A stretch of DNA of 64,000 bases from an uncultured Bacillota bacterium (GCA_963804645.1 CAWDRG010000019.1:32001-96000); one strand, 5' to 3'. Positions 16,477 to 24,770 are shown, counted from the stretch's first letter. Made by a program: numbers and translations. The notes: generated from the letters alone by a model not told the origin.

Positions 16477-16976
16477 TCAGCCCCGCTTCCACGGATGATC
16501 GGGTGGCTGTGGGGGCGGCGTGCGTGGCGCGCGCGGCGGGGGAGCCACGGGCACACACCGCGGGGCTGGTTGCGGCGCCTGCGATAGGCGTCGGCACGAG
16601 AGTGACTGCCCGCGGTAAGAGACGCCTAGGGTGCCATCGAGGAACGCGTGGACGTCGACCCGCGTGTTGGCATAGCTGCGCCCGCTGGGACCCGGCAGCA
16701 GTTGGACCCACTGCCCGGCCAGGCGGATGGTGTTGTCTTGGCCGACGGTGCGGCGGTAGCGGAAGCAGCAGATGCGCTCCAGGTCACGGCGCTCGGGCGC
16801 GGGGCGCCACGCAGGCGTCTTCTGAGCCGCCGACACCGCGAAGCGGGCATTGTAGCGAGGCAGGAACCGATCCAGGACGCGTTGCGCCTGTCCGCCAAGG
16901 TGCCCGCCTTCGCGAGACGCAGTTCGATGACGAGGCGATCCTGGAAGGTGCCAAAGAGCCGCTCGACCCGACCCTT
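16477..16976 (-). pseudogene. IS1202-family transposase, C-terminal fragment
   Basis: KGRVERLFGTFQDRL..., then (after a frameshift near 16890) RTVGQDNTI...DHPWKRG*. Confidence 0.8.
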
Positions 16977-17072
16977 ATCTGGTATGAAATTATCGGATGC
17001 GCCCTCCTCCTACGAGTTGCCGGCAGTCGGCAGCGACGTGCTATGGTGAGACCATCCGGGCGAGGGGCATCT

Positions 17073-17207
17073 GGGAGCACGCAGGACGGGTAGGCCGACG
17101 TCAAGCGATGGGCTGCGAGCCCGAACCTTTATTTGGCCGCCCCTGCGACTAGCCTGGTTGCGCTGAGAGCGCGAATCCGTTCGTGTCGCGTGACCCGCCT
17201 GCCTCCC
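17073..17207 (+). ncRNA. Candidate bridge RNA of IS110 #1
   Basis: Outer stem 17073-17091/17193-17207 encloses two internal loops, each with a central hairpin; loop strands partly match the target (GTCAAG, GAACCTT) and the donor end (ATCCGT). Confidence 0.6.
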
Positions 17208-17223
17208 ATTCAGCAAAGGGGGG

Positions 17224-18465
17224 ATGCATACGCGGTTCTTCGGGTTTGACGTTCATCAGGAATTCACGCAGATCGCGATGCTGGAGGGAGACCAGCTCAC
17301 TCAGCTCGGTCGTATTCCGACCACCCCCGCAGCCTTGCGGGAGTTTGCCGAAACCCTTAGCACTCAGGATCAGGTCGTATTGGAAGCCACCACCAATACC
17401 TATGCGATTGTGCAACTGCTCCAACAGCATGCGGGCCGAGTCGTCGTTTCCAATCCGCTCCAAACACGCGCGATCGCCGATGCCAAGATCAAGACGGATA
17501 AGGTCGATGCCGAAACCTTGGTGCGGTTGCTGGCAGGTGGGTGGCTCCCAGAGGTGTGGGTGCCAGATGCAGACACGCAAGCGCTCCGTCAGCAGGTTGC
17601 GTATCGGATCGGGTTAGTCCGCCAGCGCACGCGAGTCAAGTGTCGTGTGCACAGCATCCTGTCGCGCAATTTGATCGCGAGTTGCCCCCGGAGCGATCTG
17701 TTTGGTAAGGGCGGGCGGCAATGGTTGCTGGAGCAGGCGCTGCCGCAATTGCCCATCCATGAGCAGGCCGTCGTCACGGCCAGTCTGCGCGAGTTCGATA
17801 CCGTGAGCGCGGAGCTGGCTACGATCGAGCGCACGCTCGCCGGAGGAGCATTGCCCAGGCCTGAGGTGCGCCGGCTCATGACGATTCCCGGGATTGATGT
17901 TATCGCCGCCCTAGCGATTATGGCGGCGGTCGGAAATGTTCAGCGTTTTCGTACGCCGTCAAAGCTGGTGGCGTATCTCGGATTAGATCCGCGGGTGCGA
18001 CAATCGGGGTCAGGTCCCGTCAAATACGGACGCATCAGCAAACGCGGCCCGGGGCATGCGCGTGCCGCACTCGTTGAGGCAGCATGGGCGGCGGTGAAGA
18101 GTCCGGGGCCCTTGCGTGTCTTCTACCACCGGGTCCGGAATCGGCGCGGCGGACAGATCGCCGTCGTGGCGACGGCTCGAAAGCTCGTGGTATTAGCGTG
18201 GCACTTGCTCGCCAGGGAGCAGGACTACGCGTTCGTGCGCCCGTCTCTCGTCGCAAAGAAGTGGCGCGCCCTCGAGCTCCAGGCCGGGCATCCCCCGCGG
18301 CGGGGCGAGCGTGGCGCCGCGTACGCGTACTACCTCAAACCGCTGCGTGATCAAGAGCGTGAAATTGGAGTGCAGGCCGAGCGAGCGTATACCTTGCTCA
18401 CCCAGCACTGGCAGCCGCGCCGAGCAACACAGGACGCGGGCGCCGCAAATGGGAAGCGACTCTAA
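17224..18465 (+). CDS. IS110-family DEDD recombinase/transposase #1
   Basis: FGFDVH, LEATT, KTDKVDA, TIPGI, YLGLDPRVRQSG (catalytic Ser region), VATARKL. Confidence 0.95.
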   Translation: MHTRFFGFDVHQEFTQIAMLEGDQLTQLGRIPTTPAALREFAETLSTQDQVVLEATTNTYAIVQLLQQHAGRVVVSNPLQTRAIADAKIKTDKVDAETLVRLLAGGWLPEVWVPDADTQALRQQVAYRIGLVRQRTRVKCRVHSILSRNLIASCPRSDLFGKGGRQWLLEQALPQLPIHEQAVVTASLREFDTVSAELATIERTLAGGALPRPEVRRLMTIPGIDVIAALAIMAAVGNVQRFRTPSKLVAYLGLDPRVRQSGSGPVKYGRISKRGPGHARAALVEAAWAAVKSPGPLRVFYHRVRNRRGGQIAVVATARKLVVLAWHLLAREQDYAFVRPSLVAKKWRALELQAGHPPRRGERGAAYAYYLKPLRDQEREIGVQAERAYTLLTQHWQPRRATQDAGAANGKRL

Positions 18466-19069
18466 GGCGCAGCGCCACTAAGATAATTTGACATGGACGT
18501 CGAATAGGCCCCTCGCACGGGTTCGATCGCAGCCATCGTCGCAGCAACAATCGCAGCAGCGAGGTGAGCTTCCATGGCCGCAGCGTCCGCCACGCCGCCC
18601 GCCGTGCCCTCGGTCAATCTGGCTCAAATCATCAAGCTCCTGCACACGCATCTCACGGCAGCCTTATGTAACACGGTGTTCCAGCGGGTCCGGAATCGGG
18701 AACGCCAACGCCGCTGGTCTTTGGCCGCCCTGGCTCAGTTTTGGCTCACCGTGCTCCTCACGGGCCCCCGTTCGCTGACCCAGGCGTTGCGAGAAACGGG
18801 CATCATGTTCCCCCACCTGGGGCCGGCGGCGCGCACCTCTCCGGAGGCCTTATCTGTTGAGGGACCCCGCCGTCAAGAGGGACCGTGTAACGATTTAGAA
18901 GCTATTCCCCCACCGATCGCGACCGCGGCAAAATGTGCAGCGTCCGACGGGACGATCAAAGCCGTGTCCCGAGAAGCGTTGGCAATTTCTCGCAGCCGAG
19001 TTTCGATGTCGAGATTCTGTGGAGGAATTAGGCCCGGACAATCACCTCCCGGAAAGACCGCGGAGATAG

Positions 19070-19278
19070 GAAGTCTGCGCCAGGGTGCCCAGCCTTATCT
19101 GGGTGCGCGGAGGTATAGCCTCCGGCGACATGATGAGTGATAGGTGCAACCCTGGAGCGGGCTGCGGCCGCATCCATCTTTTCGGGATGTCCACGGACAA
19201 GCCGTGGCGACATGGGCTTACTGGGAGCTGGCCGCATCCCATCTGGTGATCTCGGGCAGAAGCGCAGTAATCCCATCT
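19070..19278 (-). ncRNA. Candidate seek/bridge RNA of IS110 #2 (downstream of the transposase; boundaries approximate)
   Basis: Contains CAGATAAG (identical to one donor end plus core) and CATGTC (other end) around hairpin GGAGG-CTATA-CCTCC; GGCTT and GAAAAG flank a second hairpin and resemble the target. Confidence 0.55.
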
Positions 19279-20343
19279 TCAGGCGATCTCTGAGGCCGGC
19301 TGTTCGAACGACGGAAGGACGTTCACATCGACGGGCGCGAAGGCGCTTTCTCCCAAATTGCGAAGGATGTGGTGTGCACGGCGACAGATCTTGCGCGCGA
19401 CCGACAGACATGCCCGCTTGTGGTTGAGGCGTTCTTTGACCTTCTGGTAGTAGCTACGATCAGGGGCTGTACGCCAAGCGGCGCATTGTGCGGCTTCGTA
19501 CAGCGCCCATCGAAGCGCTTCGGGCCCCTGGCGAGAGAGATGGCCTGGAGGACGCTTGTCGTCCGATTCGTAGACGGTGATGTCCAGCCCCGCATACCGC
19601 ACTGCATCATCCGAGGACGAGAATCTGATACAGTTTCCGAGCTCAGCCCAGATGAAAACGGCGGTAATGTCGCCGACCCCGAACAGGCGCTGCTTGAGGG
19701 CGCGGCAACCTGGCTGCAGCTTTGCAAAGCGCACGAGGTAGGCATCAAGGGGCATGAGCTGGCGGTCGAGATGCTCCATCACCTCAAGCCCCGTCGTCAC
19801 AACTCGCCGCCCGGCGGCTGAAAGGTCAGCTGCGGCGAGCTGCTCCCGTCCTTGTGTCGTGGTGAGTCGGATGCTTGGTATTCCCTGATGGAACAGTTGC
19901 GCTTGGATCCGCTGCTGCCACTCTCGACGTTCATCGGCCACTGACTTGCGAAGCCGGACTAGGGTGCGAATCTCCAGCGCGTGCTCCGGAGGGAACCACG
20001 ATTCCGGGAGACGTCCAGTGAGAAGCAGCTCCACCATGTGGTCGCAATCACGGCGGTCGGTCTTGGCCCGCCGCTTCTTTCCCCTGAGAGCCGCAGTGTC
20101 TGCCGGCTCAGCAAGATGGGCAGTCAAGCCTGCCCGTGAGATTTCCTCCGCGATGAAGCGCCATCCCGTGGTGGCCTCGAGCGCAAAGTGCGCATCGCGG
20201 CCCTTGAAGGGCACGAGGAATTCTCGTACCGTTTCCCTCAGTCCAGGAGCGATGCGACCCCGTTTGATCTCGCCGGTCTCGGTGTTCAACCACTTGAATG
20301 TGATCTGCTTCCTATGCACGTCGAATGCACCTATAATTTCCAT
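19279..20343 (-). CDS. IS110-family DEDD recombinase/transposase #2
   Basis: GAFDVH, ALEATTGW, KTDRRD, YAGLDITVYESD, VARKI; GAGGAGG RBS. Confidence 0.95.
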   Translation of the reverse strand: MEIIGAFDVHRKQITFKWLNTETGEIKRGRIAPGLRETVREFLVPFKGRDAHFALEATTGWRFIAEEISRAGLTAHLAEPADTAALRGKKRRAKTDRRDCDHMVELLLTGRLPESWFPPEHALEIRTLVRLRKSVADERREWQQRIQAQLFHQGIPSIRLTTTQGREQLAAADLSAAGRRVVTTGLEVMEHLDRQLMPLDAYLVRFAKLQPGCRALKQRLFGVGDITAVFIWAELGNCIRFSSSDDAVRYAGLDITVYESDDKRPPGHLSRQGPEALRWALYEAAQCAAWRTAPDRSYYQKVKERLNHKRACLSVARKICRRAHHILRNLGESAFAPVDVNVLPSFEQPASEIA

Positions 20344-21705
20344 TGGGACCTCCTCGATAGCTCCGCCCGTATCCTGGGCTTCAGCACGTGCTTTGTGCTT
20401 GAGCCGAGGGGGCCCCTCTCTCTCAGGGAGTCCCTCTACATGTCATCTTTTTCCAACGCGCCGAGCGGCTGCGGCCCGACTTCTTCCGCGTCCTTTACGA
20501 CGAGTATGTCGCGCACCTGGTGCCGGAGGCCCGCACGACCTACGCCGCCGCCGTGGCGGGGGTGCGCGAGCGCTTCTCCGAGGTCTGGATCCTGGACGGC
20601 ACGCGCCTGGATGCGGTGGCCCATCGGCTCAAGCTCACCTGGGATGTCCGCTCGCCGTTGTTGCCGGGGTGCCTGCTGGTGTGCTACGACCTGTTCCGCG
20701 GCTTCCCCCGGCGCCTCTCGTTCTGCGCCGATGCCGGCCGGAGCGAACTGCAACACGCGCTCGAGCAGCTCCCCACCATTCCCCAAGAGACGCTGCTCAT
20801 TGCGGATCGACTGTTTGCCTCGGTCAAGCTGGTGGCGGCACTCACGCACGGGAAGGGATGGCTCCTCTGCCGCCGGAATCGTCGGCTCACCCTGCGCCAT
20901 CAGCGCTGGCTGCGCCGCGGCCAGTTCAAGGGCGGCACGCTGATGGAGCGCCTCGTCCTCGTCGGGTCGGGGCAAGGCACCCCGCCCCAGCTGATGCGGC
21001 AGATCCGCTATACCCAACATCGACTGACCATTGATCTCTTGACGTCGGTGCTGGACCCTCGGCGCCTCCCCGCAAAAGACGCGCTGGCATGTTACCGATT
21101 GCGCTGGCAAGTGGAACGGCTGTTTTCGGATCTCAAGGGCGTGCTGGATCTCCATCACTTCTACCTCGCCAGCCCGCGCGGGGTGGCCCAACAAGTCTAT
21201 GTCGCGGCCATGGTGTATGCCGCGATGCGCGTGGCGCAAGCCCGCATTGCCGGGGAGCATGACCTGACGCCGGAGGAGTTGTCGCCCACCAAGCTCTTCC
21301 CGCGCCTTGCCCGGGCCTCGCTCACCTTCGTGCTCGGGGACCTGCATTTTGAGGCGACGCAACAGGTGAATCCCCGCGTGCGTTTAATCAAGCCGGATTG
21401 GTCGGAGCTCCCTCCCATGCAGGTCGCGCTGCCGGATCTCCTCGTCGAACCTCGTCGCGGCAAACGCCGCAAGCGTCGGTTCTGCGCGAGCCGGCACCGG
21501 TGGAAATCGTTCGCGCATGTGCGCGGCGCACGTAAGTTCGAATTATGTTAGCGGCGATGACTCTAAGGCGCCGAAGCGCCAACCAGCGCGGCGGAGTTTG
21601 CATTCCCGGACTCCGCTCTTCGGTCCGGCGGTCACCCGCGTCCGCCATTATCCTACCGCGCATGCGCCTCCCGTGCCAAGCGAGGGACTTGACAATTTCA
21701 TCCGT

Positions 21706-22476
21706 GGCCTGCGGCGACGAGGCGGGGATCCACTTGATGCCCAGTTGGTGGAGCGCCCGGCCGACTTGCGTCGCGGGTACGGCGCCGGTGAGCTGCTCCG
21801 GCAGCGGCAGGCGCGCCTTGGAATCGGCCTGGAATAGGCCTGCGCGGTCGGTGTAGACGGCGGCGGGCACGCCATACCGTTGAATCAGCCGGCGGATGAG
21901 GAGGAAGTAGCCATGGGCATCTTCCTCAGGGCGAAACACCGTGGCGAGGACGGTGCCGGTCGCATCGTCGATCGCGGCATGGAGGACGAGACGAGGGCCG
22001 CGGTCTTCGAGCCACGGATGGTGGCTGCCGTCCATCTGGACGAGGAGGCCGGCCTGGGGCATGCGCTCGCGACGGCGACGATGCCGGGGCGGCCGCCGGG
22101 TGCGGGGACTACTGATCCCGGCCTTGCGGAGCAGGCGGCGGACGGTGGGGCGCGAGAGCTGGATGGCTTCGCGTTAGTCCAGGAGCTCGGTGAAGTGGGA
22201 GTCATTGCTACCGGCATAGCGGCCTTGGGCCAGTGCCAGGACCCGGGCGCGGATCTTCTCGGCGGTCCGACGCGGTGACGCACGTCCCCGATTGCCATGG
22301 GCGAGGGCGGCCGGGTCGTGCTTGCGCACGCGGGCGAGCAAGCGCCGGACATGCCGGATGGAATGGCCGAGCAGGCGTGCGGCGTCAGGCACCGGCAGTC
22401 GGCCCTCGAGGATCTGTGTGATCACTTGTCCCCGTTGCTGCTCTTTGCTGCTCAACGTCACCATCTCCCTGGTCAT
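21706..22476 (-). pseudogene. IS1202-family transposase, N-terminal fragment
   Basis: HTH region ..HGNRGR, in-frame TAA at 22174-22176, then LVQMDGSHHPW, IDDATG, YTDR, SPQA; continues as KGRVER at 16976. Confidence 0.85.
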
Positions 22477-22594: not shown

Positions 22595-22670
22595 GCGCCC
22601 GTAGCTCAGAGGAGAGAGCGGCTGCCTTCTAAGCAGCGGGTCGGGGGTTCGAATCCCTCCGGGCGCGCCA
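22595..22670 (+). tRNA. tRNA-Arg(UCU)
   Basis: Acceptor stem GCGCCCG/CGGGCGC, anticodon arm GCTGC-CTTCTAA-GCAGC, GGTTCGAATCC T-loop, encoded CCA; 76 nt. Confidence 0.95.
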
Positions 22671-23959: not shown

Positions 23960-24770
23960 GTGCAGCCCGTAAAGCCATACACTCAGTCGGTGAGAGTCCG
24001 ACCCGCGGAGTCGCCCAACTTGCCGCGGTAGTGTTGTCCGGCGTCTCGAAGGAGGTGACTCGCGAGACGGAAGCCCGGACGTACAAGTCTCGGCGGCCCG
24101 GCAGAGATATAAAGGCCGCGGTCGGTGGCCCAGGAGACGAGCGATGGATGGGGCCGCAACATGAAGTGAACACTGCAGCGTCGTTATTCAGGCCCACTCA
24201 GAGCTCCGGGAACGGAGTGCTCAGCGCCACAGTGGGAATGAGGGTGCCAAGTTTCTACATAGGGGACGAAGGCCAGTGTGGTTGCGGAAGAAGCTGGGCG
24301 TGTGCACGCAACCAGCCCTCCGGCGTAGGGGTGGCGGCAACATCCAAAGGGTGGATGGTCAAAGCGGGGAAGGGCTCTCACCCGTGAGGCCAGTGATATA
24401 ACCGACTTCACTCGGGAAGTTCACTGGTGGGGGAGAGTCTGGCGCATGAGGCCGTAGGAGCGATGATCGCTCCGATAACAAGGAGCGGGAGCAAAGGGCC
24501 TCTGGGAGCAGGCCAGCGTTGGAGAAGGAGAGGGTGCGGGTGCTGATAACGCGCTCGGGCTACCGCCAAGATCCGGACCGACGCTGTAGGCTGCAGCAAA
24601 CCAATCGCTCCCCAGGTACAGGCTGGGAAGGATCGGGAACGCTGCAACTGAGCGCGTGCTCTTCCAGCCGGATTGGGGAAAACCCGCTATCCGGATGATA
24701 GGGGGCGGGGTGGAACCGTGGTCAGGCTCCTTAACGGTAACCTGACCGGCGCGCCACCCTGCTACCCGAC
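23960..24770 (+). ncRNA. ORF-less group II intron (811 nt)
   Basis: 5' GTGCAG; domain V 24665-24697 (AGCCGGAT-TGGGGAAAACCCG-CT-ATCCGG); domain VI with bulged A at 24764 and 3' ACCCGAC; EBS1 ACATAGG (24257-24263) is complementary to the 5' exon end CCTATGT; no RT ORF. Confidence 0.85.

Follow-up and report, generated by a model that had tools for sequence, protein, structure and literature searches.

A probable left-end bridge RNA with reversed guide order in an ISMch4-like IS110-family element

The left non-coding end (16977-17223) of an IS110-family element from an uncultured Bacillota bacterium very probably encodes a bridge RNA for the 413-residue DEDD/Ser recombinase of the same element, judging by sequence comparison with its relatives. 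The first internal loop of this RNA would bind the target and the second the donor, with the guides in both loops reversed relative to those of IS621. The element was found in a stretch of 64,000 nucleotides (GCA_963804645.1 CAWDRG010000019.1:32001-96000), here called the window, and positions are counted from its first letter. That the 5′ non-coding end encodes a bridge RNA was the original prediction for this DNA, and it is borne out by covariation of the fold among 88 relatives and of the loops with the flanking sequences.

The element, its ends and the interrupted gene

The element is ISMch4-like and composite. It extends from 16977 to 21705 on the plus strand, its own DNA being 16977-18470 plus 21572-21705, about 1.63 kb. 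These limits follow from the sequence of the ends and from two empty sites. An intact, uninterrupted paralogue of the host gene (contig C19, ~124,740-124,900) aligns through the insertion junction with neither gap nor duplication, and in a peat-metagenome contig base 16976 runs directly into a related right flank. Both confirm the target as originally reconstructed, CGACCCTT|GGCCTGCGG. The left target and core (GACCC-TT) occupy 16970-16976 and the right target (GGCCTGCGG) 21706-21714, both in the host transposase gene and given here on the plus strand. Another metagenome contig, of 1,862 nt, holds the element without its nested IS4 insertion (joint 18457 to 21559) and ends at 21705. The junctions TT|AT (left) and GT|GG (right) are present in all five close relatives, and the element ends are kept in relatives L009-L012.

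The transposase gene (17224-18465, plus strand) specifies an IS110-family RNA-guided transposase of 413 amino acids, recognised by Pfam (DEDD_Tnp_IS110 and Transposase_20) and NCBIfam (NF033542, 246.9 bits). In alignments to the solved IS621 and ISCro4 chains, its residues D9, E54, D92, D95 and S261 fall opposite the catalytic ones. The left non-coding end measures 247 nt, while the right end comprises only about 140 nt (18466-18470 and 21572-21705) and is split in this copy by a 3.1-kb nested insertion. Its displaced part (21572-21705, plus strand) contains a -35 box, the right inverted repeat and the left donor with its core, ATCC-GT, the last six bases of the element (21700-21705). The left subterminal inverted repeat ATGAAATTATC (16984-16994, plus strand) and its right counterpart (21691-21701, plus strand) share eight exact bases and match at 10 of 11 positions.

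A -10 box, TATGAA (16983-16988, plus strand), and a -35 box, TTGACA (21689-21694, plus strand), were recognised by reading the sequence. Across the element ends they read TTGACA-N17-TATGAA, which would place the boxes 17 bp apart in a circle, and the TTGAC box is also conserved in the right ends of relatives. We consider this a putative circle-junction promoter, by likeness to the junction promoters described for IS621 and IS1111 (PMC11208158). Excision as a circle would join the right-end -35 box to the left-end -10 box, and the resulting promoter could drive both the RNA and the transposase gene. The circle-junction joint was not seen among the contigs of four metagenome runs.

The nested IS4-family element (18471-21558, plus strand) is flanked by a 13-bp direct repeat (18458-18470 and 21559-21571), sits directly past the stop codon of the IS110 transposase, has imperfect terminal inverted repeats and lies outside the bridge system. 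It is itself interrupted by a second, unrelated IS110-family element (18849-20446, minus strand). The IS4 element without this inner insertion (joint 18848 to 20447) occurs in all four metagenome runs, and contigs hold the IS4 element both ways. The inner IS110 encodes a 354-residue transposase (19279-20343) that is about 30% identical to the 413-residue protein; its upstream end is short (~103 nt) and its downstream end long (~430 nt). The covariance model R1, described below, has no match in the inner element; any guide RNA of that element would be of a different type and might be encoded in its right end.

The gene interrupted by the outer element encodes an ISNCY-family transposase. Its N-terminal part, with HTH and rve domains and an internal stop, was identified by Pfam and NCBIfam at 21706-22476 (minus strand), and a C-terminal remnant lies below 16976. 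The insertion splits the codons for SPQA|KGRVER, as had been read originally from the sequence, and the intact paralogue is assigned to the ISNCY family by NCBIfam (NF033594, 383 bits against a cutoff of 250). The original label of the interrupted transposase, IS1202, is a putative group assignment, and the Glu in KGRVER is presumably catalytic. In the intact paralogue (contig C19, ~123,990-125,414, outside the window) the SPQAKGRVER site is empty. The host gene is decayed, with an in-frame stop in the N-terminal part (~22174) and a frame change near 16890; a metagenome copy is without two bases at 16892. An Rfam scan of the whole window found only a tRNA gene (22595-22667, 69.6 bits), about 120 bp past the start of the host gene (22476), and, 1.3 kb further on, a group II intron D1-D4 domain (23984-24164, 58.2 bits). 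Rfam has no family at 16900-17300, even at E ≤ 10.

Fold of the RNA and its relatives

The minimum-free-energy fold of the left end gives the layout of the original prediction, and sequence indexing places all the stems, loops and motifs at the coordinates proposed there. The outer stem P1 is formed by 17073-17091 and 17193-17207. Within it, P2 (17093-17098, pairing with 17133-17138) closes the target loop, loop 1. The 5′ strand of this loop, CGUCAAGCGA (17099-17108), is assigned as right target guide from family covariation and is followed by hairpin P3 (17109-17123), which contains GGGCT-GCG-AGCCC at 17110-17122. The 3′ strand, AACCUUUAU (17124-17132), is assigned as left target guide from covariation with the left flank; read as top strand, it corresponds to LT(-5..-1), the core and the first two left-end bases. 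The donor loop, loop 2, is closed by P4 (GCGAC, 17145-17149, pairing with GTCGC, 17185-17189). It consists of a candidate right donor guide, UAGCCUGGU (17150-17158), which has a weak signal and was assigned by symmetry, the hairpin GCGCT-GAG-AGCGC, and a 3′ strand (17174-17184) that includes the left donor guide AUCCGU (17175-17180). All of these features lie on the plus strand.

The stability of the fold is not above that of shuffled sequence (z = +0.82 and -0.34), so that the case for structure must rest on comparison with relatives. These were collected by a protein search (42-94% identity) and with a 16-base motif in the linker between the loops, which yielded 80 metagenome loci. In a hand alignment of 16 sequences (A2, which is 16 of the 17 rows of A1, L002b having been dropped as a chance match of the anchor motif), 87.4% of the cells are paired, compared with 39-47% when the strands are slid, and 13 pairs show double changes. 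In an alignment of 88 sequences, which was fitted to model R1 and therefore leans towards the model, the figures are 90.6% and 38-48%, and 21 of 38 pairs have changed on both sides. All five pairs have changed on both sides in each of helices 1 and 2, the outer segments of P1, as have four of five in helix 3, the inner segment, and three pairs in P3. Covariation among the aligned sequences shows that the RNA would fold as an outer stem holding two internal loops, each split by a hairpin.

Model R1 matches the window once, at 17066-17212 (plus strand, 154.5 bits), and gives 88 matches in 100 sources searched together. Among the 88 relatives loop 1 is hypervariable, differing in almost every lineage, and loop 2 is nearly constant. 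A variable target loop beside a conserved donor loop is the pattern described by Durrant et al. (PMC11208160). An annotated ISMch4-family element, with a transposase 52% identical in amino acid sequence, is matched by R1 in its left end at 122 bits. No R1 match was found upstream of the Rhizobium-type transposases (L035-L087, ~33% amino acid identity); that branch must use a different RNA, and these elements were left out of all claims.

Four paralogous elements with the same RNA type are present in the genome (C19, ~114.6-116.0 kb; C6, ~107.9-109.3 kb; C21, ~2.0-3.5 kb; C17, ~852.9-854.3 kb). They are 51-54% identical in amino acid sequence, and one is degenerate. They share a common left flank of at least ~80 bp, and each adjoins a distant IS110-family gene (~25% amino acid identity), which again looks like an IS within an IS.

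As most IS1111-type elements carry their guide RNA in the right end, the left structure might be secondary and the functional RNA located at 18466-18470 plus 21572-21705. The guide order and subterminal inverted repeats are indeed IS1111-like, and the right end has conserved hairpin-like segments. However, the right end is only ~140 nt long, R1 matches the left end alone, and all four guide segments are located in the left end, which is the long non-coding end of this family. We regard a right-end guide RNA as highly improbable. A functional RNA at 21571-21705 had been named originally as an outcome that would overturn the prediction; the guides and the sole R1 match are in the left end instead.

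Guides, donor sites and targets

For comparison of the guides with flanking DNA, left junctions were placed without regard to the guide; they were set by the -10 motif, with an offset of 6 or 7 and a T preceding the element. A first regular expression for that motif left 32 of 75 loci ambiguous. Letting the left guide fall anywhere within 135 nt upstream was rejected in favour of fixed junctions, its null being too high (cognate 6.46 versus 5.62); at least 8 of 9 bases matched under that scheme in 12 of 71 cognates versus 0.6%. With junctions fixed, the nine-base left guide (loop-1 3′ strand) matches the top strand at a mean of 5.90 of 9 positions in cognate pairs (n = 50), compared with 3.30 in 2,192 non-cognate pairs. 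At least seven bases match in 21 of the 50 cognates and in 0.7% of the non-cognate pairs. The match is carried by LT-4 to LT-2 (0.76-0.90), the first core base (0.76) and the first base of the left end (0.70), and LT-5 is unread (0.16). Nine of the 50 left guides match at four positions or fewer, several of these being loops of 10-11 nt that are out of register.

On the right side, the donor hexamer beside a -35-like box served to set the junctions. The right guide (loop-1 5′ strand) is complementary to the core T and RT at 4.71 of 8 positions (n = 45), compared with 2.41 in 1,796 non-cognate pairs; six or more match in 20 of 45 cognates and in 0.9% of the non-cognate pairs, and three or fewer match in 12 of 45. 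The pair counts for both guides come from related sequences with shared ancestry and are not independent events. The matches of the window itself are imperfect, at 7 of 9 for the left guide and 5 of 8 for the right.

From these comparisons both strands of loop 1 covary with the flanking DNA, and on this sequence evidence loop 1 is the target-binding loop. Guide-target covariation was the check put forward with the original prediction, and it came out in favour (21/50 and 20/45), as did the assignment of loop 1 to the target and of loop 2, whose 3′ strand tracks the right end, to the donor.

The register of the right guide differs from that first proposed. In the family register, the 5′ strand of the loop ends with a base opposite the core T, and the six bases before it pair with RT1-6. 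The original reading has GUCAAG (17100-17105) pairing across LT7-core-RT1-3 and GAACCUU (17123-17129) pairing with GACCCTT, for a programmed site GAACC-TT-GAC (GAACCTTGAC). Taken alone, the window agrees with it, as GUCAAG forms five Watson-Crick pairs and one G-U pair with CTTGGC and GAACCTT matches GACCCTT at 6 of 7 bases; moreover, the register does shift in a few relatives, L113 having four spacer bases and L155, L140 and L134 being shifted by one. Against this, the fixed family register gives match rates of 0.49-0.78 at RT1-6 in 45 relatives, compared with 0.23-0.31 in controls. L009 and L010 (94% amino acid identity) are inserted at the same codons in a homologous gene, where the encoded motif is QGKG. 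Their right guide departs from that of the window exactly where it faces these codons, with C-to-G in the RNA answering G-to-C at RT2; the two elements fit the family register (seven Watson-Crick pairs and one wobble of 10) better than the earlier one (four and one of six). The 12-mer deduced from the family register is found with 11 of 12 bases at the homologous site of the paralogue, and an A-to-G difference at 17104 in the metagenome copies creates a pair at RT4 in the family register only. The earlier register is consequently improbable in our estimation, and the target first put forward, GTCAAGGTTC, has its 5′-strand portion three to four bases out of register.

Read in the family register, the RNA of the window would specify about ACCTTT|CGCTTG, which on the other strand is the codons CAA GCG AAA GGT (QAKG). 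The occupied site, CAG GCC AAG GGT, matches this ideal 12-mer at 9 of 12 bases, and all three mismatches are at third codon positions; the element would sit in a near-cognate copy of the QAKG motif in the ISNCY transposase gene. The site in the intact paralogue (ACCTTT|CGCCTG), still empty, is one of six one-mismatch copies in the genome, which has no exact copy.

A copy of the element at the same locus in three peat-metagenome runs from two studies shows six differences from the window in 1.86 kb, of which five (17099, 17104, 17125, 17132 and 17133) are in the target loop or its closing pair. This suggests exchange of a target-loop patch between copies, whether by gene conversion or by reprogramming of patches; given that contigs may be chimeric, the differences are reported as an observation.

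In loop 2 the donor hexamer occupies positions 2-7 of the 3′ strand and reads ATCCGT in 73 of 88 relatives. Among 45 loci with sufficient DNA downstream (at least 1,700 nt), the exact hexamer is present at a right-end-like site in 31 and absent in 14. Ten loci have a non-consensus hexamer. In six of them the variant recurs at the right end of the same element (ATGCGT in L004, AAGGAT in L017, ATCGGT in L105 and L125, ATAGGT in L025 and L027), where it comes after a -35-like TTGAC box; of the other four, one differs there by a single base, another by two bases, and two have nothing comparable. The sequences show AUCCGU in the 3′ strand of loop 2 to be the predicted left donor guide, identical to the right end plus core (21700-21705), and the six variants uphold the original assignment of ATCCGT as guide for the right end.

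The other strand of loop 2 (consensus UUGCCCGGU) had been described as having no clear donor match. It can pair with the CCGG-rich starts of left ends, and the candidate right donor guide scores 3.46 of 7 compared with 2.87 in the control, a weak test because the loop strand and the start of the left end are both conserved. Contrary to that description, this strand has a plausible match to the first left-end bases, though a statistically weak one.

The donor hexamer ends in T in 87 of the 88 relatives; at the left junction a T was imposed by the search rule, so the left side is not independent evidence for the core T. Hiraizumi et al. (PMC11208158) describe a second core base T that is near invariant, a variable first base and a top-strand cut after T9, and the core and cut position proposed here fit that account. 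Because RD1 and RT1 are usually the same base, a handshake reading of the post-core base and an extended core would look alike. By this scheme the folded RNA would hold the target in loop 1 and the donor in loop 2, where the 3′ strand AUCCGU represents the right end plus core and the 5′ strand probably pairs, on weak evidence, with the first six left-end bases. Recombination would join LT-NT to the left end and the right end-GT to RT, in keeping with top-strand exchange immediately after the invariant core T, as solved for IS621.

The region could also be a mere structured leader of the transposase mRNA, controlling translation or stability, with flank matches due to chance. The ribosome-binding site and start codon (17208-17226) adjoin the RNA directly with no terminator between, and the fold energy is unexceptional, as that explanation would have it. 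A leader, however, would have no reason to alter its loop strands in step with DNA beyond the element, as happens across dozens of independent insertions, or to keep a donor hexamer that tracks the right end, and we give this explanation very little credence beside that of a bridge RNA.

At 61 loci, a Pfam scan of the open frames next to the junctions gave transposase domains at 24, and many flanks have no match. An IS256-type Transposase_mut gene is interrupted in nine loci (L091, L107, L111, L120, L133, L136, L156, L163 and L164); right flanks end at position 332-334 in seven loci and left flanks start at 335 in four, with both seen in two loci. The flanks meet at 334|335 of 379 positions and are hence cut at the same codon. 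Genes of the rve/IS481 type are cut at the DNG motif; flanks end, for example, at rve position 65 and resume at rve_3 position 2. Further matches are to the Mu transposase C-terminal domain and IS66 and, outside transposases, to a SnoaL protein, TrwC relaxase, RHS repeats and a recombinase zinc ribbon.

Guide order among IS110-family systems

In both loops the right guide (a candidate in loop 2) is on the 5′ strand and the left guide on the 3′ strand. The 3′ strands are identical to the top strand (LT plus core; right end plus core) and the 5′ strands complementary to it. IS621 has the opposite arrangement, with left guides 5′ and right guides 3′ (text and Supplementary Table 1 of PMC11208160). 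The IS621-type layout assumed originally does not hold in this respect, the guides being on opposite loop strands in both loops. The two have other features in common. In both, the RNA lies in the left end upstream of a DEDD/Ser recombinase gene, an outer stem encloses two internal loops, of which the first is variable and for the target and the second conserved and for the donor, both strands of each site are read (in our donor loop with a candidate right guide) with an overlap at a core whose second base is T, and a junction promoter, putative here, is split between the ends. Besides guide order, the two differ in the core (CT in IS621; NT here, with TT in the target and GT in the donor), in the left guide, which is short here (~4 bases, core and one more), in the recombinase (326 versus 413 amino acids) and in the inverted repeats (2-3 bp in IS621, 8-11 bp here).

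With the right guide ahead of the left in either loop, each can be read as a circular permutation of its IS621 counterpart, in which the capped hairpin and the closing stem swap places. The order around the loop (left guide, helix, right guide, helix) is kept, and only the capped and the continuing helix are exchanged. We infer this relationship by analogy with IS621.

The four IS1111-type seekRNAs described by Siddiquee et al. (PMC11187229), which are encoded downstream of tnp, have the top-strand complement first. Those of ISEc11, ISKpn4 and ISPa11 resemble the RNA of the window in carrying this complement 5′ of the bottom-strand complement, and IS1111-type elements also have subterminal inverted repeats (7-17 bp; here eight exact bases, 10/11). 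Their RNA, in contrast, is downstream of tnp in the right end, whereas here it is upstream and the left end is the long one, and their transposases have 330-350 amino acids rather than 413. The seekRNA of ISEc21, of IS110 type, is like ours in coming from the upstream non-coding region and in having short matches to both target strands; its bottom-strand match comes first, opposite to the order found here (PMC11187229). ISMch4, an ISfinder name used in RefSeq annotation, shares the R1 RNA in its left end and 52% of transposase residues, and differs in loop 1, where its 3′ strand is AGCCGUUAU. A further member of the superfamily, known from a title alone, is likewise aimed at a mobile element, but its target is a terminal repeat and not transposase codons.

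On sequence evidence, the family of the window combines an upstream RNA and a 413-residue transposase with IS1111-like guide order and 8-11-bp subterminal repeats. IS110 bridge RNAs as such are well described: Durrant et al. (PMC11208160) report a predicted bridge RNA in 85.7% of IS110-group entries, and many of the 86 bridge-RNA models of a 2026 preprint (bioRxiv 10.64898/2026.10.21.760802) are said there to "visibly deviate" from IS621. The text of the papers searched describes no left-end RNA whose guide order is reversed, and full-text searching gave no paper with the name ISMch4 or describing its RNA. The RNA is apparently a new variant in this respect, although the layout may already be among the structures of Fig. 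6d of Durrant et al. or the 86 models of the preprint.

It is conceivable, and we propose it only tentatively, that these elements form a distinct architectural class of bridge RNA. Such RNAs would be encoded in the left end with both loops permuted (right guide 5′; left guide 3′, extending one base into partner DNA), and guide order would be untied from the position of the RNA gene. The ISMch4-like class, with at least 88 members, would be largely specialised for conserved catalytic-motif codons of other transposases (ISNCY, IS481/IS3, IS256, IS66 and Mu-like), that is, for IS elements preying on IS elements, and its target loop would be exchangeable as a patch between near-identical copies. 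If true, this would be contrary to the guide-order rule for IS110 versus IS1111, which was drawn from few tested elements. That published rule, which ties guide order to where the non-coding region lies, is broken by the family of the window.

Bridge RNAs underlie a new class of programmable recombinases, for which nearly all design rules derive from IS621 and elements close to it. A widespread natural family that keeps the two-loop logic with its guides on the opposite strands would mean that the loop module tolerates circular permutation, and would offer a second scaffold for engineering and structural work. For an RNA-guided element, the invariant catalytic-motif codons of other transposases would be a safe landing site present in many copies, of which the window gives an instance: the element occupies a near-cognate site, and a better match 70 kb away is still empty.
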